32,000 nt of DNA, taken from Sulfolobus acidocaldarius DSM 639 (GTDB lineage: Archaea; Thermoproteota; Thermoprotei_A; Sulfolobales; Sulfolobaceae). The notes beneath the pieces were generated by a model, which worked only from the letters and a program-made list of their open reading frames with translations, did no database searches and was not told the origin of the DNA. The position numbers and the translations under genes are program-made. Position 1 is the stretch's first letter. Each line of letters starts with the position of its first letter. Below are positions 4,110 through 31,590 of the stretch, in pieces. The stretch is taken from contig NC_007181.1 in assembly GCF_000012285.1 (NCBI RefSeq), forward strand, positions 390,001 through 422,000, written 5' to 3'.

Positions 4110-4484
4110 CTATAATGTTATAATATTTATTCCAATAATTTTCTTTATATCCTCAAAGTCTTTATCATAGGTTATCAAAACCTCATTATTAGACTTGACA
4201 ATAGAAGCTATTAGAACATCGATATCTTCCTTTATTTTGCCCCGTGAAGCGAGTTCTCGATATATATCTGATGCAATTGAAGCTTCTCTAGCTGTGAAAG
4301 GATATATAACCATTTTTTCAATATGCTCTCTAACCTTATATCCAAACTTAGATCTTAGAATCTCATAGACGTTAAATACCGTTGTAGCTATCGTATCTTC
4401 GAACTCCTCAACTACTTTAAATGTGTTTTTGTCTCCTCTCATTACTCTTATTATCACATTGGAGTCAAGTATCACCATTTTCAA
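4110..4484 (-). CDS. vapC: PIN-domain ribonuclease toxin VapC
   Basis: MKMVILDSNVII (first acidic residue), YEIL (Glu), DVLIAS and TYDKDF (third and fourth Asp). Typical length of 124 aa. Confidence 0.85.
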   Translation of the reverse strand: MKMVILDSNVIIRVMRGDKNTFKVVEEFEDTIATTVFNVYEILRSKFGYKVREHIEKMVIYPFTAREASIASDIYRELASRGKIKEDIDVLIASIVKSNNEVLITYDKDFEDIKKIIGINIITL

Positions 4485-4713
4485 CAGCCCTAAACCTAAA
4501 ACTCTTTCTGATATTCAGTGTCTCACTAGCCATCTCCGTAGCCTCCTCTTCATTAAGAATTCCAAACATTTGGAGTAAAACATCCTTATTCCCCTTTCTA
4601 TTCTTGTTATAGAACTCAATTAGCTCATTTATAGTTTCACTGAATGACCTACCCTTCTTTAATTTCGATAATTTATCATAAACATCATCTGATATTGTAA
4701 TGACTTTAGGCAT
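4465..4713 (-). CDS. vapB: VapB-type antitoxin (DUF217-like)
   Basis: MPKVITISDDVYDKLSKLKKGRSFSETINELI matches the recalled archaeal VapB/DUF217 N-terminus. I start it at the internal Met (4713), not at the track start 4737. It overlaps vapC by 20 nt. Confidence 0.75.
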   Translation of the reverse strand: MPKVITISDDVYDKLSKLKKGRSFSETINELIEFYNKNRKGNKDVLLQMFGILNEEEATEMASETLNIRKSFRFRAVENGDT

Positions 4714-4869
4714 AAATATATTTATGCATGCATACATATATTAGCTTTCGCCTAAAGTAAACTACGGCCACTCTACTGTGTAGCAACAAAATTCTCTACT
4801 AGAGAGGGATTAATAGCAATACATATTTATCAACGTATTTATGAGAAAAGTTTTAGAGCTTATTATTAC

Positions 4870-5063: not shown

Positions 5064-5393
5064 TTATATCCAAACCTTTAACATAGCTTTAAATATCCCT
5101 TCTGAAATTTTATGATTTAGATTACGCCGCGGTAGTATAGCCCGGTCAAGTGTAATGCGCCGATAGTATGCGGGCCTTTCGAGCCCGTGACCCGGGTTCA
5201 AATCCCGGCCGCGGCACTTTAAGGTTATGAGGTTTCCCCCTAATACCCCCATATACGTTTCTATGATCTTTTCTAAAGGACCTATGTAATTGTGCCTTTC
5301 CTTACCATCTTGGCCCTTCTCTATATTATAGACATAATACTTTCCCTTAATCTCTTTAATATAGAATTTAGAACTAATGTAAAAGTTAGGCAT
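5064..5393 (-). pseudogene. N-terminal fragment Int(N) of a partitioned SSV-type integrase, reading antisense through the tRNA
   Basis: MPNFYISSKFYIKEIKGKYYVYNIEKGQDGKERHNYIGPLEKIIETYMG resembles the recalled SSV1 integrase N-terminus (RKGRYYVYK...ERYVGPLADVVESY). Beyond residue ~60 the ORF is just the antisense translation of the tRNA (RDLNPGHGLERP). A TATA-like tttataa at 5420-5426 sits ~27-33 nt upstream of the ATG. Confidence 0.65.
5126..5216 (+). tRNA. tRNA-Glu (anticodon UUC) with a 16-nt insert (putative non-canonical intron) in the D-arm
   Basis: The acceptor stem GCCGCGG/CCGCGGC is perfect. The T-arm is CCGGG-TTCAAAT-CCCGG. The anticodon arm is CGGGC-CTTTCGA-GCCCG, with anticodon TTC at 5178-5180. 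Removing 5150-5165 (gtgtaatgcgccgata) leaves a 75-nt cloverleaf. A TATA-like tttaaata lies ~35 nt upstream. Confidence 0.85.
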
Positions 5394-5688: not shown

Positions 5689-7623
5689 ATGTCTGCTAAA
5701 AATGATTCGGAAAGTAGGGTAAATAAAAGTTTCGATTCAACTCAACAACCTAACATATCCGAACAAGCTGGAAGTATTGCGCCTCAGCAAACTTCTGATT
5801 CATCTGCACCTCAGCAAGCTCAACAGAGTAATATTCCTTCACAGCCTTCTAATCAAGCCTCAGTTCAACAGGTGAGCCAGTCTCAACAACAAACTTACTA
5901 TATCGGAAAGGTCATAATTTCAAAAGATACTCCAGCGAAACATAACGAGTTTTGGGTATGGACAAAATCCCATATAGACATTGAGGTAGGCTCATCCTTC
6001 GTAATAGTTGAGGATCCTTCAGCTAGCAATAGAAAATATATTGTGGGTTTAGTAGTTGACTCAATGACAATGTCTACTTCTGAGAACGGTATTGCAGAAT
6101 ATTTTAGTAGTGGAGTTGGGGAACCTTTAATTAACCCGCCCATTGAACCAAGAGTGATTACTTTTTATAAGGTCAGAGTCATAAGTAGGGAACCTTCTAT
6201 AACTAAACCAGCAGAATCTAGAATGTTAGTGAGATTAGCTAGTCAAAATGACATAGATAGATTAAATTCCATCATAAAGCCTGAATATAGAGTTTTAGCA
6301 GGGTTTTTATACAATTTCACTAATCCATTAGATTCAAACAGCTGGATACCTATTTACTTTGACTCAACTTATCTTGCGGGTAAGCAAGGGGCTCATGTTA
6401 TGATAACAGGTAAAACAGGCTTAGCTACCAAAACCAGCTACGCGTTATTTTTAATACCTAATTTCCTACAACATGCCAAAATGAATAATAAAAGAGTCGC
6501 GGCAGTTCTTTTCAACGTAAAACAATGCGACCTATTTAACTTACACAATCTATTATTGTATAAAGATTGGGACTCATTATATAGTACAATCAAAAATTTG
6601 TTCGGTAATAGAACTGATCTTGCTGAATATAATATTGGAATGTGGAAAAGAATCAAAGAATTATATAATTTAAGTAAACCCAGTGATCTTATTCCAAAGG
6701 ATTCCAGTGGAAGACCTATGTTATATTATTATACTTATGCTGGTGATAATATATGCAGTTCTCAAATCTCTAATGCTGCGAATATACTTTTACAACAAAC
6801 AATTCCGACTTATTCCTATGGCCTAATGGACTTAGGAATACCTGAATTAATTACCGCTCTTTCGAACGGAAAATACGATACTATGAGTGAGCCACAAAGG
6901 GTCGCTATAAGTCTTTTAGCTAGGAAGGTAATTCCAGAATTGAAAGAAGAAATAAGCTTTGATAAATTATTAAATGATGCAAACAAGCAGCGTAGTATTT
7001 TTATGAAACTACTTACTAATAATGTAGATGAACGCACTGTTCCCGTTATAATAAGGTATCTAATAGATTTTGTAGGAACAAACAGAAATATAGGATTAGA
7101 ATTACAAAATGCTCATGGAAACCCAATAAAAGATACGAATATTCATGAAGGTATTAACATAATTCAGTTAAATGGCTTGTCCGACACAATGCAAAATATA
7201 GTGTTCAGCTCGGTACTGCGAACTTTAATGAACATTCAACAAGATCAAAATAATAATAGAAGATTCGACTATATCATCGTATTTGTAGATGAACTAAACA
7301 AGTTCGCTCCTAAAAGAGGCGAATCGCCTATTAAAGATCTTATAGTTGATATCGCAGCAAGAGCTAGAAGTCTAAATATAGGTTTGATCGGAGCGCAGCA
7401 GTTTGCGTCACGGATAGAAACACAGGTATATGGAAATGCGTCGACTTATGTAGTAGGAAATACAGATGCAGCAGAACTTAAAGAAGATGAATACAAAGCA
7501 TTTTCAGACTTTAAGGACATGATTTACCAATTACAGAAAGGCCAAATGGTCATTTATCAGCCGTCAACCTTTATCTCACCTATTAAGATAAGGTTTCCAG
7601 TAATTCCCTATGATGTAAGCTAA
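5689..7623 (+). CDS. HerA/DUF87-like (FtsK-HerA clade) ATPase with a Q/S-rich disordered N-terminus
   Basis: 644 aa. Walker B is IIVFVDELNKF. A P-loop-like ITGKTGLATKTS deviates from GxxxxGK[ST]. A barrel-like segment YIGKVIISKD...IVGLVVD lies N-terminal to the ATPase, as HerA HAS-barrels do. Residues 1-70 are S/Q/P-rich. Confidence 0.6.
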   Translation: MSAKNDSESRVNKSFDSTQQPNISEQAGSIAPQQTSDSSAPQQAQQSNIPSQPSNQASVQQVSQSQQQTYYIGKVIISKDTPAKHNEFWVWTKSHIDIEVGSSFVIVEDPSASNRKYIVGLVVDSMTMSTSENGIAEYFSSGVGEPLINPPIEPRVITFYKVRVISREPSITKPAESRMLVRLASQNDIDRLNSIIKPEYRVLAGFLYNFTNPLDSNSWIPIYFDSTYLAGKQGAHVMITGKTGLATKTSYALFLIPNFLQHAKMNNKRVAAVLFNVKQCDLFNLHNLLLYKDWDSLYSTIKNLFGNRTDLAEYNIGMWKRIKELYNLSKPSDLIPKDSSGRPMLYYYTYAGDNICSSQISNAANILLQQTIPTYSYGLMDLGIPELITALSNGKYDTMSEPQRVAISLLARKVIPELKEEISFDKLLNDANKQRSIFMKLLTNNVDERTVPVIIRYLIDFVGTNRNIGLELQNAHGNPIKDTNIHEGINIIQLNGLSDTMQNIVFSSVLRTLMNIQQDQNNNRRFDYIIVFVDELNKFAPKRGESPIKDLIVDIAARARSLNIGLIGAQQFASRIETQVYGNASTYVVGNTDAAELKEDEYKAFSDFKDMIYQLQKGQMVIYQPSTFISPIKIRFPVIPYDVS

Positions 7624-7637
7624 CATTAGGTGAAAGA

Positions 7638-9005
7638 ATGAGTGAGAATGAAAACGATCTGAAAGAATGGTTAAAGGGAAACCAAAGTGTTAAGCTCTCA
7701 GTTCAAGGATTTTCGGATGATGATCCCGAAGAAGAGATAGTAGGTACCGAAAACGTATCTTTAGATGACAGCGACTCCTTAAATCTTCAAATTCAGCTAA
7801 AATATCCTCTACCTCAAGCGACTAATAATGATCTAATATTTATCGATGGTACTAGTAGATATAGAGTGATAGGAAGTTTTAAGGCTAATAATGTCTTAGT
7901 TCCTATCGTATTCGGGAATATTATCGCGGGTGCAATGAGATTAGATGCTGGAAATAAAACATTAAGACCCTTAAAAGTGAAAATATTAAAAGTTGTTCTC
8001 TTCCCTAAGAAGACTATAGAAGACTACCAGTCAGCTATAATACCGCTACCGCCCAATATACCGATAATAGAAGATAATAGTTCTACGAAGTTCATGAATT
8101 TTAGTAATAATCTTGTTGATACATTTATACGAATTTCAGATATATCATATACACTTGGTGAAAATGAAAGCGGACAACACAGACAACTAATTTATAGAGA
8201 AGATTTGATTTCATCAGGGAAGATAAGACAAGTCGCCAGAAATAGAGTTAAAGAATTAATGAGGGTCTTAGAGTTATCATTATTATATGAATTAAGGCAG
8301 CTTTACAAAGACAGCCTAATTTTAATGGACGGTCCTATAGGTCCTTTAATTAAGTATGCTGGACTCGTAGATATTTATCTTAGAGAAGTAGTGAGGTTAA
8401 GAGATAATGACTCTAATAATATAGAGAAGGCATATGATCTGCTTCATAATGTTATAGGTGTAGTTAAGAAGGTGGTCAAAGTTCCTGTATCATTAATTGA
8501 TGCTATTTCTAGTGGTAATTTGCCTAAAATATATAGATGGAATAAAGTTATAGACGATGGTATAGACGCCGAAGGGAAGGAAGACTCCTATTTAACTAGT
8601 TATATACTTAGTGCTTTTTTAAAACTAAGAGAAGAGTTACAAAACGAGAACTTTCCCGCGTTCTCAAATTTATCTGGATTAATAAGAGTCGATATTCCTT
8701 TAGCATCTATCATAGATAAAAGTGAGTGGATTAGTTTCTTCAGCTACACTCAAATAAAGGATAGCGATGATAAGGGGAATATTATACTTACTGATTATGG
8801 TAGGCAAAAAATATACGACTTAGTTGTAAAAGGTGGCAAAAAACTAGAGGAGCTATTAAATATAGTATACAGTTTCAAATATCCGATACCAAGCTCCTCC
8901 CCATACAGAAATTTAGTAGAACTTTATCCAATAAAGGAAGTAGAAGACTGGATGAAATCTCATTTAATGAGCAAATATGAGATGGCATCATATGTATATT
9001 CTTAA
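7638..9005 (+). CDS. NurA-like nuclease domain protein
   Basis: 455 aa, beginning 14 nt after the ATPase stop. LIFIDGTSRY, LILMDGPIGPLI and VIGVVKKVVKV resemble the recalled NurA motifs (xDGS, xDGSL, GvsK). Confidence 0.5.
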   Translation: MSENENDLKEWLKGNQSVKLSVQGFSDDDPEEEIVGTENVSLDDSDSLNLQIQLKYPLPQATNNDLIFIDGTSRYRVIGSFKANNVLVPIVFGNIIAGAMRLDAGNKTLRPLKVKILKVVLFPKKTIEDYQSAIIPLPPNIPIIEDNSSTKFMNFSNNLVDTFIRISDISYTLGENESGQHRQLIYREDLISSGKIRQVARNRVKELMRVLELSLLYELRQLYKDSLILMDGPIGPLIKYAGLVDIYLREVVRLRDNDSNNIEKAYDLLHNVIGVVKKVVKVPVSLIDAISSGNLPKIYRWNKVIDDGIDAEGKEDSYLTSYILSAFLKLREELQNENFPAFSNLSGLIRVDIPLASIIDKSEWISFFSYTQIKDSDDKGNIILTDYGRQKIYDLVVKGGKKLEELLNIVYSFKYPIPSSSPYRNLVELYPIKEVEDWMKSHLMSKYEMASYVYS

Positions 9006-9027
9006 CCTCCCGTTTGTCCCCACACTG

Positions 9028-9954
9028 TCATTCTTCTATCACTTTTTCTAACTTCTCTCTCAGTTCTTTGGTATCATAGCCGAAAGCCTCAGGCTCTTTT
9101 TCTAATACCCCTATGAAAACTTTAGCAACCTCTTTCCTCCCCTCCTCATTTAAGCTTCTTGGTTTTCCATTTTTATCGATTATCCTATACCTAAGATCTC
9201 TGCTGATGTCCATTATCATCTTCCTCGCCTCCTTTAAGGTATCACTTACTGGCATTTTGTCGTTTTTGACTACAGTGCAGACCCAACAGCCAAACCTAAC
9301 GTCAGTGGTTAACGCACAACCACAACCGTCATTGTCTTCTTTCACTTCATATAAGTTCAGTAAATAGTCGAATTCCCTACCGTCCCACCTCCTCTCGCTA
9401 CGTAGGTACCTAAACACGTCCTCAGTAGTCCAGTCGAGTATGGGCATAATAATCGGATTACCTAACCTTATTATTTTTTCATGCTTTCCGTTATACGCAG
9501 TCTGTTTAGCCCTTTCACTACTTTCCGTCATCCTTACACCAGAAAGTTGGACAAATTTTCCCAATTGCTCCATAAACCTCTTCATCGGTCTTAGCTTCAG
9601 TCTTTCCATGCACCACCTAAACCTGTGAGATGGTGCAGGATAGCCTCTTTCGACCATCATTGAGATGAAATCCTCTATGGGAGTTAATCTAATAGGCTTA
9701 ACATTAGGATAAACCTTTAAGCTCTCTAAAGCGTCTAAAGCCTCTTTTCTCAAGATCGGGTGCTCTAGCAAAGTGTCTGCGTAAACTACGTACAGCGTCT
9801 TAATCATAGCACCTCTTTCCATAGCTTTCAGAGTTAAACTTAGAACTGTAGTAGAATCCTTTCCTCCACTAAAACCTAATTCCCATGGTAAGTTTGATAA
9901 TTCTTCGCTAGCATTAATAATAAGTTCAATTGCCTCCTCTACTCTTGTTTCCAT
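9028..9954 (-). CDS. DndC-like PP-loop ATP pyrophosphatase (PAPS-reductase superfamily)
   Basis: FSGGKDSTTV (SGGKDS PP-loop), HRFRWCMERLKLRP and RFGCWVCTVV match recalled DndC/SspD-type signatures. It is the last gene of a 7-gene overlapping operon. Confidence 0.7.
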   Translation of the reverse strand: METRVEEAIELIINASEELSNLPWELGFSGGKDSTTVLSLTLKAMERGAMIKTLYVVYADTLLEHPILRKEALDALESLKVYPNVKPIRLTPIEDFISMMVERGYPAPSHRFRWCMERLKLRPMKRFMEQLGKFVQLSGVRMTESSERAKQTAYNGKHEKIIRLGNPIIMPILDWTTEDVFRYLRSERRWDGREFDYLLNLYEVKEDNDGCGCALTTDVRFGCWVCTVVKNDKMPVSDTLKEARKMIMDISRDLRYRIIDKNGKPRSLNEEGRKEVAKVFIGVLEKEPEAFGYDTKELREKLEKVIEE

Positions 9955-9955
9955 A

Positions 9956-10609
9956 TTATTTACACCTCACCCTTGCAAGATATTCTACGAACGATTGATA
10001 ATACCCCTTTATTATAACTCTGAGTTCAGTGATATTTTTCCAAAACTTGACAGGTATGATATAGTACTGACTTTTCGCACCATATTCGTACTCATTTAAT
10101 CTAATCTTATTCTGCCCATAGAGATTAAGGATAGAGAGTGCTACGATTAATTTCAATTTATCTTCTCTATCGTTATAGTGGATAAAAATTGTTCTTCCCA
10201 ACACATCAAATTCTTGCGCAACCCAAACTTTGGTAGATAATACTGCATAGATAGGTTCACCATATCTTTGCTCTGACTGTTCTTCAGTCCATGAAGATCC
10301 TGTTGTGTCAATAAACAGCCCAGGCCAGTATCTGTCTTCCCCGTTCTCTTTATAGTGATAATAAATCGTGAAGTCGTATTTGTCTAAGACGTCTTTGTAG
10401 TAGTCGTGATTAATAACGCTCGTCAGCGTACCTATACCAGTCCTCCTAAGGTAAATATTATCTGGAATTAGGCCCTTTTCCTTCCACTGTTTTAACTTAA
10501 TGTGAAGTAGCCCGTAGATTAGGTACTCCCTACCTAGGTGCTCGTTTGGGACCTCAAAGCCGTCAAAGTTAGAGTTGGCCCAGTACCTTTGCTTGAAATC
10601 AGTTGACAT
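9956..10609 (-). CDS. Hypothetical protein (217 aa), immediately upstream partner of the DndC-like gene
   Basis: The ORF ends 1 nt before the DndC-like start codon. No motif recognised. Confidence 0.65.
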   Translation of the reverse strand: MSTDFKQRYWANSNFDGFEVPNEHLGREYLIYGLLHIKLKQWKEKGLIPDNIYLRRTGIGTLTSVINHDYYKDVLDKYDFTIYYHYKENGEDRYWPGLFIDTTGSSWTEEQSEQRYGEPIYAVLSTKVWVAQEFDVLGRTIFIHYNDREDKLKLIVALSILNLYGQNKIRLNEYEYGAKSQYYIIPVKFWKNITELRVIIKGYYQSFVEYLARVRCK

Positions 10610-10754
10610 TCCTTTCAGCCTCCTTGAAGTAGATGCACTTCGAGTATGAGGTAAGGCAGTAGATCAGTTGTGGTATGTAGCTCGGGTTAGCCTCGCTCAG
10701 GCACCACACTCTTGTCTGGTCCAGGAACGGGCAGACTTCACTCTTGTCTTTCAT
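10599..10754 (-). CDS. Small 4-Cys protein (51 aa), not in the ORF track
   Basis: Hand translation gives MKDKSEVCPFLDQTRVWCLSEANPSYIPQLIYCLTSYSKCIYFKEAERNVN. It overlaps the upstream gene by 17 nt and the downstream gene by 11 nt. Confidence 0.5.
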   Translation of the reverse strand: MKDKSEVCPFLDQTRVWCLSEANPSYIPQLIYCLTSYSKCIYFKEAERNVN

Positions 10755-10947
10755 TTAGCTCAGCCTCCAGCTCATTCAACAAAGATGAGATTTCTGATAC
10801 GACGCGCTTTGCCTTCTGGACCTTCCTATAGCCCTCCGCCCTTTGTTTCAGCCTTAAGTCTAGCTTAGCGTCCTTTGCCAGTCTCTGGAGTAGCAGTATC
10901 TGGTCTTCTAGTTCCAATAGCAAATCATTTAGGTCCACTTGCTCCAT
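10738..10947 (-). CDS. Small coiled-coil protein (69 aa)
   Basis: ORF with heptad-like, charged composition. It overlaps both neighbours. Confidence 0.6.
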   Translation of the reverse strand: MEQVDLNDLLLELEDQILLLQRLAKDAKLDLRLKQRAEGYRKVQKAKRVVSEISSLLNELEAELNERQE

Positions 10948-11078
10948 CCTTCCTCAGCCTCCAAGAACTTCTGCAGAGCCTCCCTTATTATTTCGCTCCT
11001 TGAGACCCTCTTGTTAATGGCGTACAAGTCTAGCTTACTGACCAAATCTTCCTCCGCCTTAAAATTGATCACTCGCAT
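10929..11078 (-). CDS. Ribbon-helix-helix (CopG/Arc/MetJ-like) DNA-binding protein (49 aa), not in the ORF track
   Basis: Hand translation gives MRVINFKAEEDLVSKLDLYAINKRVSRSEIIREALQKFLEAEEGWSKWT. This is the classic beta-strand then helix-helix pattern with the SRSEIIREAL helix. Confidence 0.65.
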   Translation of the reverse strand: MRVINFKAEEDLVSKLDLYAINKRVSRSEIIREALQKFLEAEEGWSKWT

Positions 11079-11099
11079 GGTCCTCAGTCCTCTAGATTG

Positions 11100-11420
11100 T
11101 TACTCATCTGGCTCACCCCATCCGTCAAACGTTATACCCTGATTCTCTTCTTCCCTTAGTAGTTCTCTTCTATGTCTCTGATAGTAGTTATATAGCTTCA
11201 AAACATGTTTGCAGAGCATCCCATATGAAGATGCCTCACAAGAGCACGAAAACCTTAACCAAGAACCGTTAAGTATGAGCATAGTATGATGATATAGGCC
11301 GTCTCTACTTTCACTCCTTATATCAGCACTTATCTCTATAACGCCCTGCTGGTCCTTCATCACTTTTAAGATATTAATGTCTTTATGTGGTTGGGTCCTT
11401 ATCGTAAGTTGATTGCTCAC
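11100..11420 (-). CDS. SWIM-type zinc-finger protein (106 aa)
   Basis: FSCSCEASSYGMLCKHVLKLY fits the CxCx(n)CxH SWIM signature. Confidence 0.65.
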   Translation of the reverse strand: MSNQLTIRTQPHKDINILKVMKDQQGVIEISADIRSESRDGLYHHTMLILNGSWLRFSCSCEASSYGMLCKHVLKLYNYYQRHRRELLREEENQGITFDGWGEPDE

Positions 11421-11770
11421 TCTTCCTCACCCTCAGCCTTAGCCTCCTTTTCTAATTCTGCTGAAACTTCTAACAGCTTCTTTGCCTTCTCTTTCAAGAG
11501 CTTTGCTAAGAATTTCTTCGCCTGGGTGTTATCGTTTACCAGCTCTAATACCCTGTCATCAGATAAATGAATAGCCCCAGAGGCTAACTTGTAGTAGGCT
11601 GGCTTACTTAATTCCCCAGCCTCGATCAAGCTCCAGAAGTAGTCCTCAAATGCTGTAAAGATCTCTTCCCTTTCCTCCTTAGTCAAGCTCGAAATCGCAT
11701 ATAAAAAAAGATCAGAACTTTGCTCCCCTTGGAACTGGGGAGTTTTCCTCTCAACTACTTGGGTGGACAT
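11417..11770 (-). CDS. Acidic helical protein, first gene of the operon (start revised to the internal Met)
   Basis: The track ORF runs 11417..11848, but its first 26 codons cover the TATA box and both operators. The ATG at 11770 is preceded by gaggt (SD-like) about 10 nt upstream. Confidence 0.55.
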   Translation of the reverse strand: MSTQVVERKTPQFQGEQSSDLFLYAISSLTKEEREEIFTAFEDYFWSLIEAGELSKPAYYKLASGAIHLSDDRVLELVNDNTQAKKFLAKLLKEKAKKLLEVSAELEKEAKAEGEEE

Positions 11771-11787
11771 TTTTGTATTACCTCTAT

Positions 11788-11837
11788 CTTCTATTGTAGA
11801 AGGTGGCTTATAAATCTTTTGTCTTCTATTATAGAAG
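11788..11837 (-). promoter_or_regulatory. Promoter with two palindromic operator-like sites flanking a TATA box
   Basis: CTTCTAttgTAGAAG (11788-11802) and CTTCTAttaTAGAAG (11823-11837) flank cttataaatc (11807-11816). Confidence 0.55.
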
Positions 11838-11889
11838 GTAGATTTCACTTTCAGTTAAGCGTCTTATGTCTTTAATCCTTTTGTATAAT

Positions 11890-12024
11890 ATGGTGACGAA
11901 GGACTACTACTTGGGGGCGAAGTATGTTATCCTAAGATTAAGGGAAAGCCTAGCAACAAAATTAGACGATAAGACTTATATGATTCTGGAAGAAGAGTTG
12001 ACTAAAATTGGAAAAAGAGCTTGA
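11890..12024 (+). CDS. Small ORF (44 aa), possibly RHH-like, divergent from the operon
   Basis: Hand translation gives MVTKDYYLGAKYVILRLRESLATKLDDKTYMILEEELTKIGKRA. No strong motif. Confidence 0.3.
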   Translation: MVTKDYYLGAKYVILRLRESLATKLDDKTYMILEEELTKIGKRA

Positions 12025-12057
12025 CTTGAAGTTTTACTTTTCTGAAAAACATTATGA

Positions 12058-12366
12058 TTAACGGATTTGGGTAAGCTTTTCAAATCCTATCTCTTTCATG
12101 AGCTCTAGTAACTTCTTTCCCTTGTCTGTGAGAGACACGAGCGTGCTCCTCCCTTTCTCTTCGTACTTTATTAGGCCCAGCGCTAGCAAGTTCTTCTCGA
12201 TCGTATTGTAATATATTCCAGTGCTGACATTCGCCGCCTCCCACAGCTCACTGAGGGTTCTCGGCTCTTCTAACGCTAGTAGTACCCTGTACAAATGTTC
12301 ACACCTTAAGGGGTTTGAAAGATCCCTAGGCATATTTCCTCTACTATTTACTAATGTGTAACTCAT
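12058..12366 (-). CDS. Small winged-helix (wHTH) regulator, paralog A
   Basis: 102 aa. ...LSELWEAANVSTGIYYNTIEKNLLALGLIKYEEKGRSTLVSLTDKGKKLLELM shows the HTH, wing and TxKG pattern. Confidence 0.7.
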   Translation of the reverse strand: MSYTLVNSRGNMPRDLSNPLRCEHLYRVLLALEEPRTLSELWEAANVSTGIYYNTIEKNLLALGLIKYEEKGRSTLVSLTDKGKKLLELMKEIGFEKLTQIR

Positions 12367-12461
12367 AGTTCAGATACTTTTTCATACGCCATAAAAAGTT
12401 TTGAGTATATCATGTATTATAAAATTTTTATAATATTGCTTCTATAGTAGAAAATAAGGAA

Positions 12462-12758
12462 GTGAAAATGAGAGAGTTGAGTAACCCAGTGAGATGTGTT
12501 CACCTATACCTTATCTTGAAACATGTTCAAAGCGAAATATCGTTAAATGAACTCTATACGAAGACGAGGATCGCGTCTAGTGCTTTCTATTACACTGTCA
12601 TACCAACAATGCTAAAATTAGGCTTAATTGAAATAAGCTACGAGAATAGGAAGAAAATCATAAGGCTCACCGAGAAAGGAAGAAAGCTCCTGGAGGTCCT
12701 TAACGATATTGAGTTCGAGAAGGTAATAGCAAAAGAGGCTTTGGTTGTAACGCCATGA
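12462..12758 (+). CDS. Small wHTH regulator, paralog B (GTG start), divergent from A
   Basis: 98 aa, colinear with A (LSNPxRCxHLY...LGLI...LTxKGxKLLEx...FEK). Confidence 0.7.
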   Translation: MKMRELSNPVRCVHLYLILKHVQSEISLNELYTKTRIASSAFYYTVIPTMLKLGLIEISYENRKKIIRLTEKGRKLLEVLNDIEFEKVIAKEALVVTP

Positions 12759-13321
12759 CGCCCCCTACTCCTTCTTCTTCTAATAATAATATTATGAATA
12801 GTATACTAGTTAGGTCAGAGAAGATAGCGAAGATGTTGCTCAGGCTAGTTCAAGGGCCTGCATTAGCTAGAGAGTTAGCACAACTGATAAACACAACGTC
12901 AAACGAGGTCTACCCCAGGCTGGAAAGGTACATCTTTAAGGGGCTAATACAAAAGGCCAGGACAATCAACAGGCTCAACATTTATTCTTTGACTGAAAAA
13001 GGGAAGCAGCTGCTATTTCTTAGCAAGGGGTCTGACTTTGAGGAGGTAGTAAAGAAGGCTGAGAAGAAATTAGGAAGGAACCTGGACGAGGAAGAGAAAG
13101 AGGTTCTAAGAGTATTTTACGAAGAGAAAGGGTACATTGAGGCATCATCGACTGAGAGCGTTGCAGAGAAGGTCTACTATAAACTGAAAGGAAAGGTCAA
13201 GCTGTACAGGATTGAGCAGATACTAGACGATCTGACCAGCAATCACATTATTTTCGGGTTCAGGCCTAACAAGAGAAGCCTTGTGATGAAGGCCAAACTC
13301 GATAGGGATCTCTTGCACTAG
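12755..13321 (+). CDS. wHTH protein with a C-terminal extension (188 aa)
   Basis: LARELAQLINTTSNEVYPRLERYIFKGLIQKA...SLTEKGKQLL. It overlaps paralog B by 4 nt. Confidence 0.65.
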   Translation: MTPPTPSSSNNNIMNSILVRSEKIAKMLLRLVQGPALARELAQLINTTSNEVYPRLERYIFKGLIQKARTINRLNIYSLTEKGKQLLFLSKGSDFEEVVKKAEKKLGRNLDEEEKEVLRVFYEEKGYIEASSTESVAEKVYYKLKGKVKLYRIEQILDDLTSNHIIFGFRPNKRSLVMKAKLDRDLLH

Positions 13322-13416
13322 TTCTTTTACGTTAAACAAACACCTAATTCTATGCACTCTTTTTCTCACTTTTGTAATAAAAATTCAAAGTACGTCATTC
13401 TTTCTCGCTAATTCAG

Positions 13417-13431
13417 TTAACTCCCCAGTTT
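13417..13431. repeat. Solo MITE terminus (ttaactccccagttt)
   Basis: Lies about 65 bp left of the complete MITE, in the same orientation as its left end. Confidence 0.45.
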
Positions 13432-13483
13432 ATATGAAAGAAATAAATTGAATAAAAGTGACATAGATCCTATCTTTTTTGTA

Positions 13484-13809
13484 AAAACTCCCCAGTTAAA
13501 TGAGAAAAATTATAACTGAAACAAATACAACTACTATTATTACTACTACTAACTGAAAAACAAACAAAACTCAAACAAACAAACACAAACTTTTACACTC
13601 ATTTTTACGCTTGCTAATTTACTATAATTATTAGACTAATTCAATTTTTTACATTTTTTAGAAATTTTTTAATGACGTTAAGATGACGTTAGGGCTCCGT
13701 CAAGCCTTAGAGAGCCTGGGCCCAAGGCTACTTAACTGTGCCAATGGCCAAACTGTGAGTAGTAGTTAATAATGCTAGCTGAATTTCTCTCAGTAAACTG
13801 GGGAGTTTT
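13484..13809. mobile_element. Non-autonomous MITE-like element (~325 bp) with long terminal inverted repeats
   Basis: The left end is aaaactccccagttaaatgagaaaaatt...actactattattactactact. The right end is gagtagtagttaataatg...gaatttctctcagtaaactggggagtttt. It has no ORF and a CAAA-rich interior. Confidence 0.7.
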
Positions 13810-13916
13810 CCTTAGGGCTTGAACCACAGATGTGACCATTTTCTCTGCCCTCGGTAGATATGGCCTAAACTTTAAGATTTATTAACATTATATGTATTAT
13901 GTAGAGTGGAACATCC

Positions 13917-14216
13917 ATGGAAATCAAGATTAATGAACAGCTCTTCGAGTTGTTATCAACAGAAATGAAGTTCGTCTTGTACGTAGGGCTGTTGAAAGAG
14001 CCCACCTTAAGCGAGCTTAGGGATGCTACTAGGGCGAGCTGGAGTACAGTGCACAACATTGTCCCTAAGCTACAAGGCTTGGGCCTGATAGAGGTCCAGG
14101 AAGAGAAGACGAGGGTAAAGAGCGTAAAGAAAATAGCCAAACTAACAGACAAGGGCCGCATGGTCTTTGAGAAGATTCTAGAGTTAAACCAGCTCCTCTC
14201 AGAAGACAAAGCATGA
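13917..14216 (+). CDS. Small wHTH regulator, paralog D
   Basis: 99 aa. TLSELRDATRASWSTVHNIVPKLQGLGLIEVQEEK...KLTDKGRMVFEKI. The antisense ORF 13865..14209 is low-complexity and rejected. Confidence 0.7.
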   Translation: MEIKINEQLFELLSTEMKFVLYVGLLKEPTLSELRDATRASWSTVHNIVPKLQGLGLIEVQEEKTRVKSVKKIAKLTDKGRMVFEKILELNQLLSEDKA

Positions 14217-14225
14217 ATAGGCGTC

Positions 14226-14513
14226 TTACGAGCTCGATAAAGACTTCGAGGCTTTTTTCATTTCGACGATCCTTTCAATCTCAACTAATAATTGAGCGAC
14301 CTCTTTCCCGCTCTCTGTCAATATTACGAACCTGCGGCGTGGGAACGAGTGCTCTCTTTCTTCATTAACGAGGCCTAACTTAATCAAATGTTCTAATGAG
14401 GGGTTAAGCACAGAAGTGGACGAGTGTGAGGCGTCAACCAGCTCTCTAGCTGTCATCTTGTCCTTCTTTAATAATGCCTTGAGAATCCTCTGCTCTACTT
14501 CTGACAGCTCCAT
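14226..14513 (-). CDS. Small wHTH regulator, paralog E
   Basis: 95 aa. LSEVEQRILKALLKKDKMTARELVD...LIKLGLVNEEREHSFPRRRFVILTESGKEVA. It is a close paralog of 17482..17775. Confidence 0.7.
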   Translation of the reverse strand: MELSEVEQRILKALLKKDKMTARELVDASHSSTSVLNPSLEHLIKLGLVNEEREHSFPRRRFVILTESGKEVAQLLVEIERIVEMKKASKSLSSS

Positions 14514-14711: not shown

Positions 14712-14762
14712 GGTGACAAAAAGACGACAAGCCTCGCCCTTTTAAGGCGGGGAGGAGGTCAG
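14712..14762 (+). repeat. Hairpin unit (PATE/REP-like) forming the left end of the composite block
   Basis: ggtgacaaaaagacgacaagcctcgcccttttaaggcggggaggaggtcag. Confidence 0.7.
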
Positions 14763-15582: not shown

Positions 15583-15888
15583 ATGTCCGTAGAGTTCAAC
15601 TTAACCCTTAACCAAGTTAAGGTAAAGGGAAGTGTCTTTTCTCTAAACCCCTACTCTTTTGAAGCGATAAAGAGGTGGTATGACAAGTTCCTAAAGTGGT
15701 GTGAGAACTATGACGTCATGACGTACTGCCAGAAGGACATGGAAGAGGAGGTAGAGTACTTAGCTGAGGCTTTCAGACTGTTAGCCCCTAAGAGCTTAGA
15801 GGAGGCTGAAGAATATTTCGCCGTCTTGGAAAGGGCTTACGACTCTACTGAGGGTAAGATAAAGGAAGTGTTTGTTAGGGCTATGTAA
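15583..15888 (+). CDS. Hypothetical acidic protein (101 aa, passenger gene)
   Basis: ORF with normal composition. Its stop lies inside the conserved gtaaaggtttttt motif that marks the tnpB element's left end. Confidence 0.55.
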   Translation: MSVEFNLTLNQVKVKGSVFSLNPYSFEAIKRWYDKFLKWCENYDVMTYCQKDMEEEVEYLAEAFRLLAPKSLEEAEEYFAVLERAYDSTEGKIKEVFVRAM

Positions 15889-17224
15889 AGGTTTTTTGAG
15901 GAGTAATGGGCGAAGGAAAGTGAAGAGGAGTAATATAGTTAGACTAGTTGTCTCGAAGGACGTGGGCAAGAAGTTGAGGGAGCTAGCAACATGGACTGCC
16001 AAGTGTTGGAACGAGGTTAACTGGTTGAGGATGCAACAGTTCAAGGAAGGGAAGATGGTGGACTTTAACGACACTGAGAAAGTAGTGTACGCTAAATACA
16101 AGGAGTACTTAAAGGTAAATGCCCAACAAGTGTGTAGGAAGAACGCCGAGGCATGGCGTTCCTTCTTCTCGCTAATGAAGGACAAGAAAGACGGTAAGTT
16201 GCCTAGCTGGTTTAAGCCTAGACCACCAGGGTATTGGAAGGATAAACGTGGTAGCTACAAACTGTTAATACTAATCAGAAATGATAGGTATACAGTAGAC
16301 GAGAACGCTAGAACAATTTATCTGAAGGACTTTGGGTTAACACTTCACTTCAAAGGCAAGCTTAAGTGGAAGGGCAAACAAGGAAGGTTAGAGATATTCC
16401 ATAATGGACTACATTGGTGTGCATCTATACCAGTTGAGGTGGAGGTTAACGCTAAGCCCAAAGGTAATGGTATAGCTGGAGTAGATTTAGGTATTGTTAA
16501 CTTGGCTACTGTAGTGTTCGATGATAGCTCGTGGGTGTTGTTCAAAGGTGGTTCTGTACTATCAGAGTATGAGAACTACTCTAGAAAGATTGCAATTACG
16601 CAGAAAAAGTTGTCATTGCATAAGCAAGAGAGGAGTAAGAGGTTGAAGGCGTTGTTTCTAAAGAGGAAGAGGTTCTTAAAACACGTGTTGAACTCTATGG
16701 CTAGGAAGACTGTAGAGACTGCTTACGAGAAAGGAGTATCGATAATTAAGGTCGGGTATCCCAAGGAAATATCAAAACACCACGGGAATAAGCTCACTGT
16801 AAACTTCTGGAACTACAACTACGTTATTAGGAGGATGCAAGAGGTCTCAGAGGAGTACGGCATCAAAGTCGAAACGGTGAACGAGGCTTATACTTCAATT
16901 GTGTGTTCCCTATGTGGGGAAGCCCATGAAAATGGGCGTATACACCGTGGTTTGTTTAAGTGTCCCCACATAGGGAAAGTCGTTAACGCAGACTTGAACG
17001 GGGCGATAAACATCCTACATATCCCCAAGTCCCGAGGAGGGTGGAGTGAGGGTAACTCCACCAAAGGGATAGGGGTAAAATGGCTGAAGACCCAGCCAGT
17101 GGTCTACCACTGGACGAGCGGAGCGGGGTGGGTGTTTAAATCACCCACTAGCTGTGAAGCGATGGGAATGAAGGTGGTGAACCACAGACCTGTGAACCGC
17201 CCTAGGGGAACCCTCACCCTTTAG
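15872..17224 (+). CDS. tnpB: TnpB (IS200/IS605-family RuvC-like RNA-guided nuclease), apparently intact
   Basis: GVDLGIVNLATV (RuvC-I Asp), VETVNEAYTS (Glu), the zinc-finger region CSLCG...CPH, and NADLNGAINIL (RuvC-III Asp). The real start may be GTG 15920. The last ~70 codons read through the RE/omega-RNA region. Confidence 0.85.
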   Translation: MLGLCKGFLRSNGRRKVKRSNIVRLVVSKDVGKKLRELATWTAKCWNEVNWLRMQQFKEGKMVDFNDTEKVVYAKYKEYLKVNAQQVCRKNAEAWRSFFSLMKDKKDGKLPSWFKPRPPGYWKDKRGSYKLLILIRNDRYTVDENARTIYLKDFGLTLHFKGKLKWKGKQGRLEIFHNGLHWCASIPVEVEVNAKPKGNGIAGVDLGIVNLATVVFDDSSWVLFKGGSVLSEYENYSRKIAITQKKLSLHKQERSKRLKALFLKRKRFLKHVLNSMARKTVETAYEKGVSIIKVGYPKEISKHHGNKLTVNFWNYNYVIRRMQEVSEEYGIKVETVNEAYTSIVCSLCGEAHENGRIHRGLFKCPHIGKVVNADLNGAINILHIPKSRGGWSEGNSTKGIGVKWLKTQPVVYHWTSGAGWVFKSPTSCEAMGMKVVNHRPVNRPRGTLTL

Positions 17225-17241
17225 GGCGGGGAGGAGGTCAG
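16995..17241 (+). ncRNA. Predicted omega (re)RNA scaffold of TnpB, overlapping the tnpB 3' end and the RE hairpin
   Basis: Placed by analogy with characterised TnpB systems. The same ~230 nt are conserved in the tnpB-less derivative at 28875-29110, which supports a non-protein function. The 5' limit is approximate. Confidence 0.45.
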
Positions 17242-17481: not shown

Positions 17482-17775
17482 TTAATTTTCTAGGAGGCTA
17501 TATATCTCGTCTAGCTTCTTCGCAACTACCTTTCCCTTTCCTGTAAGATATAGGAAGCGCCTCCTTGGGAACACTTCTTCCCTCCTCTCTTCTACAAGTC
17601 CAACCTCGATTAATTCACGTAGAGCGGAAGTGACAGAATTTGGACTAGAACGTGTCTTCTCAATGATATCGCTCAGGGCGGTCCCGTCGTTTTTCAGCAG
17701 AAACCTTAGAACCCTCTGTTCTATCTCACTTAGTTCCTTATGCCTTATACTCATTTCAATTACTAATCTACTCAT
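17482..17775 (-). CDS. Small wHTH regulator, paralog G
   Basis: 97 aa. LSEIEQRVLRFLLKNDGTALSDIIE...LIEVGLVEERREEVFPRRRFLYLTGKGKVVA. Confidence 0.7.
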   Translation of the reverse strand: MSRLVIEMSIRHKELSEIEQRVLRFLLKNDGTALSDIIEKTRSSPNSVTSALRELIEVGLVEERREEVFPRRRFLYLTGKGKVVAKKLDEIYSLLEN

Positions 17776-19514: not shown

Positions 19515-19557
19515 AAAGTGACGAAAGCCTCGTCCTTTAGGGCGGGGAGGAAGTCAG
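19515..19557 (+). repeat. Hairpin unit (PATE/REP-like)
   Basis: aaagtgacgaaagcctcgtcctttagggcggggaggaagtcag, preceded by ttac (19511-19514). It lies between convergent genes. Confidence 0.7.
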
Positions 19558-20772: not shown

Positions 20773-21165
20773 TTAACTCCCCAGTTAACTGAGAAAAATA
20801 AAATGTAAAAGTCTGCTTTGGTCCTGTCCTATATTCAATTAACTTATCAGTTTCTGTAAAAGTAACTGTAAACTGAAACAAATATAACTAACACTATTAC
20901 TACTACTTAATCTAAAACTCTAAAACAAAAACTCAAACTTTTACACTCTTTTACATTTAGGCTAAAGATTTGCTAAAGTCTTGCTAAATTGCACTTTTAG
21001 ATTTATTTTTGAGAAAAAGTTTAGAAAAAGCGATAAGAAGGAGGCTCACAAAAAGGCATTTGGACCCAGCTAGAGGAGTATAGGCTATGGGTAAAATCTG
21101 CTACTTGTGCATGAGTAGTAGTAAATAATAGTAGTTGAATTTCTCTCATTTAACTGGGGAGTTTA
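20773..21165. mobile_element. Second copy of the MITE-like element (~393 bp)
   Basis: The termini are ttaactccccagttaactgagaaaaat and gaatttctctcatttaactggggagttta. The interior shares aaactgaaacaaata..actattactactact and aaactcaaac..ttttacactc with the copy at 13484-13809. Confidence 0.7.
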
Positions 21166-22927: not shown

Positions 22928-22965
22928 CTGACCTCCTCCCCACCCTGAGAGGTCTCTTTCATTTC
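22928..22965 (-). repeat. Degenerate hairpin unit directly after the PIN-like stop codon
   Basis: ctgacctcctccccaccctgagaggtctctttcatttc. Confidence 0.5.
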
Positions 22966-24881: not shown

Positions 24882-25328
24882 TTATTTCCCTCTCAATATC
24901 TTATCCCGTATAATGGAGTAACTGGTATACTCAGGATAACGATAATAGACGTATTTTAAAATCTCGCTCCTACTTTTCCTTACCCACTCCCTAAAGAAGT
25001 CCAATACTTTTTTGTCTACTCCCTTTATTTCCATGTCTTTAGCTAATACATATTTCCTCCTCACTCCTACCACAAAGCCAGTTATCATATCCTCCACCGG
25101 GTCTTCCTCCACGCTCACTATTCCTGCGTCAATAAGCTTGTTTATTTTATTTTGCAGATACTCAGAGTAAGGGCCAAAATAAAAAGGCTCAAATCCTAAT
25201 CCTAAATCAACACCTCCTTCCTTTTCTAACAAAAAGAATATCTTCTGGAGCTTTGTAGCAGTTACCTCAGCATTTTCCTCCTTTGCCACCTTAAGGAGGG
25301 CAAGGATGTAATTGTCAACAGTGTCCAT
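24882..25328 (-). CDS. Panacea/SocA (DUF4065)-like putative antitoxin, cassette 1
   Basis: TATKLQKIFFLLEKEGG...FEPFYFGPYSEYL resembles the recalled DUF4065 pattern (KLQKLLYy...f.aw.yGPv). The start is set at MDTVDN, as in the paralog. Confidence 0.55.
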   Translation of the reverse strand: MDTVDNYILALLKVAKEENAEVTATKLQKIFFLLEKEGGVDLGLGFEPFYFGPYSEYLQNKINKLIDAGIVSVEEDPVEDMITGFVVGVRRKYVLAKDMEIKGVDKKVLDFFREWVRKSRSEILKYVYYRYPEYTSYSIIRDKILRGK

Positions 25329-25472
25329 AAATGCCACCAACTAAAATATAGTTTACACTTTAAGCATTTATTTTTTAATACGGGGTCTTCATCGAAACTA
25401 AATAGAAAACTATGGAGTTAATTTAACACCTCATCCAAATCCTTTTTATACACTCCCAATGAGTTTACACAT

Positions 25473-25625
25473 ATGAAGATTGAGAAGAGAGAGGGTGAAG
25501 AGGAAGTAGACATAATCTTTGAGAGCAAGGAAGATCTAGAGGAGTTTAGACAACTACTTATTAAGAAGTATTATGAGCTTAATCCCGACCGCAAACCTCC
25601 TTATGGGACCCAATCCTCCAGATAA
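25473..25625 (+). CDS. Small acidic ORF (50 aa) divergent from cassette 1, not in the ORF track
   Basis: MKIEKREGEEEVDIIFESKEDLEEFRQLLIKKYYELNPDRKPPYGTQSSR. It is conserved with 27271..27429. Confidence 0.45.
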   Translation: MKIEKREGEEEVDIIFESKEDLEEFRQLLIKKYYELNPDRKPPYGTQSSR

Positions 25626-25642: not shown

Positions 25643-25690
25643 CTGGCTTCCTGCCCGCCCTGAGGGGCGAGGCTTGTCTCATCTTTGTCA
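25643..25690 (-). repeat. Hairpin unit (PATE/REP-like) at the junction of the two cassettes
   Basis: ctggcttcctgcccgccctgaggggcgaggcttgtctcatctttgtca. Confidence 0.65.
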
Positions 25691-26682: not shown

Positions 26683-27130
26683 TAAGTTTTCCCCTAATCA
26701 CCTTATCCCTTATTACAGAGTATCTAGTGTAGTCAGGGTAACGTCTGTAAACGTAAGTTAGTATTTCCTGTCTGGGCTTGGATACCCACTCCTTGAAGAA
26801 CTGTATGATTTCATTCCTTACATTATCCACTTTGACGTCATTTGCTAGTACATACTTCCTCTTTATGCCTATGGTGAGCCCTGATATGACGTCTTTGACC
26901 TCTTCTTCCTCAACGTCGACCATACCGAGCTCAATCAGACTGTTAATACGGTCTTGGAGTAGCTTTGAGTATGGTCCAAACAACCATGGTTCAAAGTTTA
27001 GACCTAGATTAACTCCTCCCTCCTTTTCTAACAAAAAGAATATCTTCTGGAGCTTTGTAGCAGTTACCTCAGCATTTTCCTCCTTTGCCACCTTAAGGAG
27101 GGCAAGGATGTAATTGTCAACAGTGTCCAT
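26669..27130 (-). CDS. Panacea/SocA (DUF4065)-like putative antitoxin, cassette 2
   Basis: 153 aa. TATKLQKIFFLLEKEGG...FEPWLFGPYSKLL. Confidence 0.55.
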   Translation of the reverse strand: MDTVDNYILALLKVAKEENAEVTATKLQKIFFLLEKEGGVNLGLNFEPWLFGPYSKLLQDRINSLIELGMVDVEEEEVKDVISGLTIGIKRKYVLANDVKVDNVRNEIIQFFKEWVSKPRQEILTYVYRRYPDYTRYSVIRDKVIRGKLIGNA

Positions 27131-27270
27131 GAGTATATCACCAACTAGATGTTTTCATTTTAAGTATTTATTTAAAGATGGAGTCTTCCTCAAAACTAAA
27201 TAGAAAACTATGGAGTTAATTTAACACCTCATCCAAATCCTTTTTATCCACTCCCAATGAGTTTACATAT

Positions 27271-27429
27271 ATGAAAATAGTAAAGAGAGAAGGTGAAGAG
27301 GAAACTGACATAATCTTTGAGAGCAAGGAGGAACTTGACAGATTTTTTGACGAGCTTATTAAGGAAGCTGAGGAAAGGGAAAAGGCTAGAAGTAAACCTT
27401 CTCATGAGGATAATTCGTTAAAGTTTTAA
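27271..27429 (+). CDS. Small acidic ORF (52 aa) divergent from cassette 2, not in the ORF track
   Basis: MKIVKREGEEETDIIFESKEELDRFFDELIKEAEEREKARSKPSHEDNSLKF. Confidence 0.45.
   Translation: MKIVKREGEEETDIIFESKEELDRFFDELIKEAEEREKARSKPSHEDNSLKF

Positions 27430-27610: not shown

Positions 27611-29241
<1,631 letters not shown>

Positions 29242-31550: not shown

Positions 31551-31590
<40 letters not shown>

Follow-up and report, generated by a model that had tools for sequence, protein, structure and literature searches.

A putative Tdp-type DNA phosphorothioation cassette on a cryptic integrated element of Sulfolobus acidocaldarius

The window analysed here is a stretch of 32,000 nucleotides (nt) from the genome of the crenarchaeon Sulfolobus acidocaldarius DSM 639 (NCBI RefSeq contig NC_007181.1, positions 390,001 to 422,000), and coordinates below are positions within it unless another record is named. 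Three adjoining genes in this window, Saci_0472 to Saci_0474, encode a HerA-like ATPase, a NurA-like nuclease and a short DndC-like PP-loop enzyme. We consider it likely that they constitute a self-contained restriction-modification cassette of the Tdp type, based on DNA phosphorothioation and carried as cargo on a cryptic integrated element. All three proteins can be assigned to families and carry conserved catalytic motifs, and their genes are strictly linked across archaea and bacteria. An initial annotation of the same DNA had treated the DndC-like enzyme as an orphan that closes a seven-gene module on the minus strand, and had named the convergent HerA/NurA-like pair as a possible effector. 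The conserved unit is the trio rather than the seven-gene string, the enzyme is accompanied by the HerA/NurA-like pair in all trio loci, and the suggestion that this pair is the effector has become the best-supported reading.

A conserved trio of ATPase, nuclease and DndC-like enzyme genes

The HerA-like, hexameric-type ATPase Saci_0472 (AAY79878; 644 amino acids (aa); 5689..7623, plus strand) is proposed to be a TdpA-like DNA translocase, and the NurA-like nuclease Saci_0473 (AAY79879; 455 aa; 7638..9005, plus strand) a TdpB-like restriction nuclease. The DndC-like enzyme Saci_0474 (AAY79880/Q4JBE9; 308 aa; 9028..9954, minus strand) would be the TdpC-like DNA phosphorothioation enzyme. Accessions, including AAY79881 for the neighbouring 217-aa protein, were obtained by exact-sequence look-up, and the locus numbers Saci_0473 to Saci_0475 are given by accession order. 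The stop codon of the ATPase gene is separated from the start of the nuclease gene by 14 nt, while the nuclease and enzyme genes are convergent, with stop codons 22 nt apart. All three open reading frames (ORFs) are intact, and identical proteins are encoded on 132 to 295 S. acidocaldarius contigs.

A metagenome scan anchored on the ATPase yielded 24 contigs, in every one of which a nuclease gene adjoins the ATPase gene on its downstream side. The DndC-like gene is present on 23 of them, and the remaining contig stops before the gene could show. Homologous trios are also found in Acidianus sp. HS-5, Metallosphaera sedula and Thermocrinis sp. Three gene orders were seen among these loci: an ATPase-nuclease pair converging on the enzyme gene, an enzyme gene diverging from the pair, and all three genes in one direction, enzyme first, with overlaps. 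The flanking genes vary from locus to locus. Given three gene orders and variable flanks, adjacency itself is therefore the preserved feature.

In Acidianus sp. HS-5 and M. sedula the enzyme ortholog is 65-66% identical to Saci_0474, and its gene is convergent with, and overlaps at its 3′ end, a pair encoding proteins of about 445 aa and 607-653 aa. The ATPase orthologs of both species are 49-53% identical to Saci_0472, and the Acidianus nuclease is 46% identical to Saci_0473 (E 2e-121). More distant trios occur on bacterial Thermocrinis contigs, where a gene for a 343-aa enzyme (33% identity, E 4e-41) diverges from genes for a 648-aa ATPase (34-41% identity, E 4e-33) and a 388-aa nuclease (24% identity, E 7e-10). 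The named hosts of the family are S. acidocaldarius, Acidianus, Metallosphaera, S. islandicus, Desulfurococcaceae, Njordarchaeales, Thermocrinis and Thermodesulfobium, all of which are thermophiles.

The enzyme gene also adjoins HerA-like genes in a metagenome-assembled genome (MAG) of the Njordarchaeales, which are Asgard archaea. In this locus (JBQSGM010000036.1, 1-7161) the DndC-like gene is divergent from a gene for a 558-aa protein, which is followed by genes for 353-, 556- and 432-aa proteins. Of these, the 556-aa protein is HerA-like and the 558-aa one could be another copy, while the 353-aa protein gave no convincing alignment with NurA-like proteins.

Saci_0474 contains the three motifs noted in the initial annotation, SGGKDS, FRWCxxRLK (here FRWCMERLK) and RFGCWVCT. 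Their key residues, S29-S34, R113-W114-C115, R220, G222, C223 and C226, are invariant in 48 relatives, and the PP-loop SGGKDS together with the cysteines of FRWC and GCWxC (Cys115, Cys223 and Cys226) is common to these 48 short relatives and five canonical DndC proteins. Profile comparison favours DndC (PADLOC, 1e-44; NCBIfam TIGR03183, 2.8e-41) over BrxP (PADLOC, 1e-14), SspD (PADLOC, 1e-10), cysH (NCBIfam, 8e-6) and QueC (Pfam, 0.046), with PAPS_reduct as the Pfam match at 2.1e-16. By sequence, then, Saci_0474 belongs with DndC, as first annotated, and not with CysH, QueC, SspD or BrxP, yet it is not a canonical DndC. At 308 aa, compared with about 450-520 aa for DndC, it lacks the 120-150 or so C-terminal residues of the canonical enzyme, and it is one of a distinct family of 300-390 aa with members in Sulfolobales, other archaeal MAGs, Thermocrinis and a Thermus phage. 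An AlphaFold 2 model (predicted local distance difference test score, pLDDT, 92) has CysH and APS reductases as its nearest solved folds.

Other roles for a PAPS-reductase-fold protein were considered. An assimilatory CysH role was ruled out, the match to DndC being far stronger than that to CysH, and a QueC-like deazaguanine role was ruled out at the E value of 0.046. BREX type 4 and Ssp were likewise discarded, since their partner genes are absent and their scores are weak. The absence of Dnd partners reported earlier was confirmed and extended, in that DndA, DndD and DndE domains were found neither in the window nor in the neighbouring genes of the relatives.

Both subunits of the proposed restriction part can be related to HerA-NurA complexes. 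Saci_0472 matches the Pfam DUF87/HerA central domain (E 1e-5) and HerA of D. radiodurans (PDB 7f6d; single sequence, E 2e-31; profile, 1.2e-40). Three of its motifs, Walker A (GKTGLATKT), Walker B (VDE) and the arginine motif ARxRS, are invariant across both domains of life, from the Sulfolobales proteins to those of Thermocrinis. Residues 1-67 (5689-5889) form an N-terminal extension of low complexity rich in Q and S, and relatives align from about residue 70. Saci_0473 scores just under the cut-off of the Pfam NurA family (19.9 against 21; E 5.6e-4), and so its assignment rests on the fold match. Its AlphaFold 2 model (pLDDT 76, predicted template modelling score 0.84) finds its best matches in the NurA subunit of HerA-NurA from D. 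radiodurans (7f6d_G, E 2e-10) and in TM1739 (9e-9), and also matches NurA of T. kodakarensis/Thermococcus and Pyrococcus. The nuclease motifs FxDG (D70), E212 and DGP (D231) are invariant in 15 relatives, and these three residues are also kept in more distant relatives, with the exception of one doubtful Njordarchaeales protein. The window holds a HerA-type ATPase with Walker motifs beside a NurA-fold nuclease with conserved acidic residues.

This resemblance raises the question of whether the pair is an end-resection, repair or element-maintenance machine that lies near the enzyme gene only as shared mobile cargo. Both proteins indeed find their best match in the D. radiodurans repair complex, with which they share the folds and motifs of both subunits, as they do with the Thermococcus complex (9x1n). 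Moreover, the loci are situated in integrated or conjugative elements along with integrases and TraG-like ATPases. However, the pair stays linked to the enzyme gene in two domains of life and in three gene orders, even though every other neighbour differs, and a pair lacking the enzyme was never seen on an informative contig, which makes such an independent machine very unlikely. The window pair also differs from the known complexes in its linkage to a DndC-like gene and its location on mobile elements. Canonical NurA-HerA genes of Sulfolobales sit with Mre11 and Rad50, and genes for these two proteins are absent from the window. By analogy with the repair complexes, the pair probably works as a ring translocase that feeds a nuclease.

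The enzyme gene is less strictly bound to its partners. A search anchored on the enzyme recovered solo copies, with no ATPase or nuclease gene within 7 kb, in Thermus phage Tsatsa, in a conjugative-type element (65% identity; L195), in the Thaumarchaeota MAG UBA164 and in three further loci (L006, L196 and L197). A restriction pair that is never found without its modifier, together with a modifier that is sometimes found alone, is the pattern typical of restriction-modification systems and of orphan or anti-restriction modifiers. The solo enzymes on the Thermus phage and on plasmid-like elements suggest that mobile elements mark their own DNA to evade such systems. A scan of the genome collection with the enzyme family returned mostly canonical DndC, and among the matches listed only the already known UBA164 locus belonged to the family. 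The corresponding scan of IMG/VR gave no close relatives, its best match being 35% identical.

Two of the solo loci have distinctive surroundings. Tsatsa is a lytic-type Thermus phage of 20.8 kb (PQ109078.1), and its DndC-like gene (1710-2669 of that record), whose product is 33% identical to Saci_0474, follows directly after the replication gene; the enzyme may mark the DNA of the phage itself and so allow escape from Tdp-type restriction by the host. The L197 locus (7001-12437 of that contig) encodes a 413-aa relative, 35% identical, followed by genes for a 279-aa protein, an AAA protein (236 aa), a 124-aa protein and an SMC_N protein (656 aa), with no HerA/NurA-like pair. This may be an intermediate, more Dnd-like arrangement.

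Relationship to Tdp and other phosphorothioation systems

One source (PMC12914056) describes a three-gene phosphorothioation cluster, tdpABC, reported from extremophiles in 2025, in which tdpC alone suffices to make phosphorothioate. The same source gives GpsATC as the observed consensus and extremophilic bacteria as the organisms in which tdp is found. The initial annotation had entertained the idea of an undescribed modification module; a system of this kind is already known, to which the trio would add a crenarchaeal case, located in a model organism on an integrated element that resembles a virus or plasmid.

The S. acidocaldarius trio appears to share with TdpABC its three-gene composition, with a single compact modification enzyme and no DndA, DndD or DndE, as well as an ATPase-nuclease pair as the restriction part and thermophilic hosts. 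In all informative loci the compact DndC-type enzyme is the sole modification gene of the three-gene cluster, and the named hosts are exclusively extreme thermophiles. The bacterial Thermocrinis trio, moreover, is homologous to that of the window. The window copy differs in being crenarchaeal, in its convergent arrangement and in its location on a fusellovirus- or plasmid-like integrated element. For TdpABC of extreme thermophiles, An et al. (Nat Chem Biol, 2025) reportedly found that TdpC acts through an adenylated DNA intermediate and that TdpA is a hexamer encircling duplex DNA. TdpAB reportedly degrades phosphorothioate-free DNA and is inhibited by sulfur marks.

From this comparison we infer a chemistry, a target motif and a restriction activity for the cassette. 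The PP-loop of Saci_0474 would adenylate the backbone phosphate at the target motif, and sulfur would then replace the activated oxygen with no need for DndA, DndD or DndE encoded nearby. A ring of the HerA-like ATPase would translocate on duplex DNA and feed it to the NurA-like nuclease. Sulfur marks on host DNA would stall or inhibit this machine, such that only unmarked incoming DNA would be degraded.

Other phosphorothioation systems are less similar. With DndABCDE-DndFGH the trio shares the logic of a phosphorothioate mark coupled to a restriction part, and Saci_0474 is 31-36% identical to DndC over about 230-300 residues, including the PP-loop and the cysteine motifs. However, the window has no DndA/IscS, DndB, DndD or DndE, the enzyme is without the C-terminal extension, and the HerA/NurA-like pair stands in place of DndFGH, with only a weak match to DndH (7.6e-4). 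SspABCD-SspE and BREX type 4 (BrxP) also use PAPS-reductase-fold enzymes to place phosphorothioate marks for defence, but here the matches are much weaker than that to DndC and the partner genes are missing.

Several observations weigh against a phosphorothioating cassette of the Tdp type. The proposed membership in the Tdp group, though the most likely affiliation, rests on architecture, host range and the properties reported for TdpABC. Saci_0474 falls below the equivalog cut-off of TIGR03183 (141.8 against 290.4 bits), PAPS-reductase-fold enzymes carry out several different chemistries, and the pair is closest to a complex for DNA repair. The literature searched contained no chemical evidence of phosphorothioate in S. 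acidocaldarius and mentions Saci_0472 to Saci_0475 only as the label of a ChIP-seq peak. Finally, no Tdp or DndC chain was found in the copy of the PDB that was searched by sequence, by profile and by fold with Foldseek; the matches obtained with the trio were limited to CysH/APS reductases, FAD synthase, and repair proteins of the HerA or NurA kind.

Some of these points would also fit a functional trio whose motor and nuclease sense a mark other than phosphorothioate, such as a base that is thiolated or altered in another way, or a phosphate adduct, adenylated or of another kind. Many chemistries are supported by the PAPS-reductase/PP-loop fold, and CysH, FAD synthase, LarE and GMP synthetase have the nearest solved folds. 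Saci_0474 falls about 200 residues short of DndC and scores under the DndC equivalog cut-off, and no sulfur-donor gene lies nearby. Against this, DndC is by far the best family match, the cysteine pattern of DndC (RWC and CxxC) is invariant, and tdpC by itself makes phosphorothioate according to PMC12914056. A different mark is, in our judgement, unlikely.

The RGATCY signal and its possible origin

A Tdp-type cassette in S. acidocaldarius might account for an epigenomic signal that lacks an enzyme. Sequencing of DSM 639 by the single-molecule real-time (SMRT) method revealed partial modification at AGATCC/GGATCY (RGATCY), with GATC as the core, at 24%-61% of sites (PMC5809426). In 2018 the signal was called N6-methyladenine (m6A), yet MboI cut the DNA and DpnI did not; the modification was assigned to no methyltransferase, and a defence role was dismissed by the authors since modification was partial (PMC5809426). 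REBASE curators had credited RGATCY to M.SuaII, but this prediction proved incorrect because the cloned enzyme makes 5-methylcytosine (m5C) in CCWGG (PMC10609329), and RGATCY is consequently left without an assigned enzyme.

In phosphorothioate systems a short motif is typically occupied only in part (PMC12914056), and the GATC core of RGATCY is the same as the reported Tdp consensus. We tentatively propose that the RGATCY signal may be phosphorothioate GpsATC made by Saci_0474, and not, or not only, adenine methylation, a reading that we are slightly inclined to doubt. It is opposed by an anti-m6A dot blot in which DSM 639 DNA gave a signal above the negative control (PMC5809426). Within the window, GATC occurs 80 times, compared with 110.6 +/- 9.5 expected, and RGATCY 27 times, compared with 41 +/- 5.6 expected; these mild depletions were counted as evidence neither way.

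The signal also bears on whether the cassette is an inactive relic in S. acidocaldarius. The trio lies in a cryptic element with no recognisable integrase in the window, among TnpB copies of the IS200/605 type, and the methylome study saw no second restriction-modification system (PMC5809426). Decay is nevertheless quite unlikely, given three full-length ORFs with intact catalytic motifs, identical proteins on many S. acidocaldarius contigs, and the unexplained partial RGATCY signal in DSM 639 itself.

If the RGATCY reading is true, Saci_0472 to Saci_0474 would make up a second restriction barrier that has been overlooked in an archaeal genetic model in wide use, and to our knowledge the first phosphorothioate system shown in a crenarchaeon. 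S. acidocaldarius is among the few genetically tractable crenarchaea, and plasmid DNA destined for it is routinely pre-methylated against SuaI. Transformation and work on viruses and their hosts would be affected by a second, phosphorothioate-based barrier. Minimal one-enzyme phosphorothioation could also be studied there, together with a HerA/NurA-type restriction motor, in a native thermophilic host that is open to genetics. The assignment supplies a concrete candidate for the RGATCY motif, and it implies for annotation that the “orphan PAPS reductases” of Sulfolobales are encoded as parts of a defence trio.

The upstream genes and the carrier element

Upstream of the enzyme gene lie the six other genes of the proposed seven-gene module. 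The ORF list reproduces the arrangement described in the initial annotation, with seven co-directional minus-strand genes, overlaps of 4, 19, 17 and 11 nt, a 21-nt gap (11079-11099) and a 1-nt gap. Two of the ORFs, of 49 and 51 aa, are shorter than 60 aa, where three had been counted. The first gene encodes an acidic helical protein with no family match (11417-11770, or to 11848 with a GTG start that would give 143 aa). It is 43-44% identical to a 112-aa protein of Acidianus that adjoins a gene resembling SSV1 D-63, and the alignment begins only at residue 25, which favours the ATG at 11770 as the start, as originally suggested.

The following genes encode a 106-aa SWIM zinc-finger protein (11100-11420), a 49-aa ribbon-helix-helix (RHH) protein (10929-11078), a 69-aa coiled-coil protein (10738-10947) and a 51-aa 4-Cys protein (10599-10754), the last two without a family match. 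The SWIM protein scores 19.1 bits against a cut-off of 19.6 for SWIM and matches phrog_29279 (3.6e-8), a PHROG made up of viral zinc-finger proteins. For the RHH protein there are matches to NF053762 aCcr1_fam (61.5 bits, cut-off 60) and RHH_1 (1.3e-7), and the aCcr1 family is common in Sulfolobales viruses (PMC9976892).

The sixth gene, Saci_0475 (9956..10609, minus strand), adjoins the enzyme gene. Its 217-aa product, which had been left without a family, is a fusellovirus-type D212/D-244 nuclease, matching PF12187 VirArc_Nuclease over profile positions 1-190 of 190 (E 2.5e-107; 357 bits, cut-off 20.1) and phrog_9634 (5e-73). It is 59.7% identical to D212 of SSV-RH and 55.5% identical to D-244 of SSV1, and all 18 of the matching records are Sulfolobus viruses. 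The SSV1 counterpart belongs to the T5 early operon, where it follows RHH and winged-helix genes and precedes the integrase gene.

If the seven genes were a single module, the DndC-like enzyme would work together with the SWIM, RHH, 4-Cys and 217-aa proteins. Co-transcription is plausible, since the genes overlap or abut and a Shine-Dalgarno-like motif, GGTGAGGTG, is located 9-17 nt upstream of the enzyme ATG, an arrangement that would be compatible with internal translation from a polycistronic mRNA. However, co-occurrence contradicts the module. Homologs of the six genes are absent from all 24 ATPase-bearing metagenome loci (23 of which also carry the enzyme), and none of the six adjoins the enzyme gene in the other loci examined, including those of Acidianus, Metallosphaera, Thermocrinis and the Thermus phage. 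In Acidianus and Metallosphaera a gap of about 530-580 nt lies upstream of the enzyme gene, bounded in Acidianus by a gene on the opposite strand, and an RHH homolog is found in a separate block near the integrase gene, about 4 to 6 kb from the enzyme gene; in Acidianus the acidic-protein homolog is in this same block. In addition, the 217-aa protein is a fusellovirus core nuclease whose SSV1 gene lies beside RHH and winged helix-turn-helix genes. A functional link between the enzyme and these small zinc- or DNA-binding proteins, as first envisaged, is thus most improbable.

The six genes instead resemble an early or regulatory block belonging to a cryptic integrated element of fusellovirus- or plasmid-like type. 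They share with the fusellovirus T5 early operon (SSV1 F-112 ... E-51 RHH, F-93, D-244 nuclease ... integrase) a D-244/D212-type nuclease (55-60% identity), an RHH regulator and a string of small overlapping genes. They differ in that the DndC-like gene, not an integrase gene, follows the nuclease gene, and in that neither the SWIM protein nor the acidic protein has a BLAST match among virus records (tblastn against phage records). A tblastn search of plasmid records with the fusellovirus-type nuclease also gave no match. Tight packing of small genes is normal in the operons of Sulfolobales viruses and plasmids and is by itself no proof of shared function. The close packing here joins two unrelated modules, and in this strain the six genes are probably co-transcribed with the enzyme gene solely as a result of local rearrangement.

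Farther upstream, at 12058-14513 and 17482-17775, at least six genes for small winged-helix regulators form a dense cluster. One is of the SSV1 F-93 type, and several are paralogous to one another and to genes of the Metallosphaera element.

On the other side of the trio, a tRNA-Ser(CGA) gene of 92 nt (5126..5217, plus strand) was identified with ARAGORN 470 nt upstream of the ATPase gene. As a candidate target for integration, it may mark the edge of the mobile element. A search of the window showed no att-like duplicate of the tRNA that reaches 28 nt. By its length the tRNA gene could accommodate an intron, and a 109-aa antisense ORF (5064-5393, minus strand) overlaps it. Just outside it, at 4110-4737, is a toxin-antitoxin pair of the VapBC type (a PIN domain protein and a VapB antitoxin), which together with the trio gives the region the character of a defence island.

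The window also contains several families of repeats. A G+C-rich palindromic element of 33 nt (CTGACCTCCTCCCCGCCCTAAAGGGCGAGG and its complement) is present in eight copies (14730-14762, 17209-17241, 19525-19557, 22928-22960, 25643-25675, 27621-27653, 28875-28907 and 31551-31583). Some of these are located at the ends of TnpB (IS200/605 OrfB) genes at 15872-17224 and 27900-28895, and the palindromes are probably transposon ends or relics resembling miniature inverted-repeat transposable elements. Three adjacent families of direct repeats, 83-85% identical, occur at 13486-13604 and again at 20775-20952, about 7.3 kb apart, and could either delimit an inserted segment or represent duplicated regulatory regions. 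A further stretch of about 470 nt is duplicated at 24981-25540 and 26783-27338, where the two copies are 70-89% identical and lie 1.8 kb apart.

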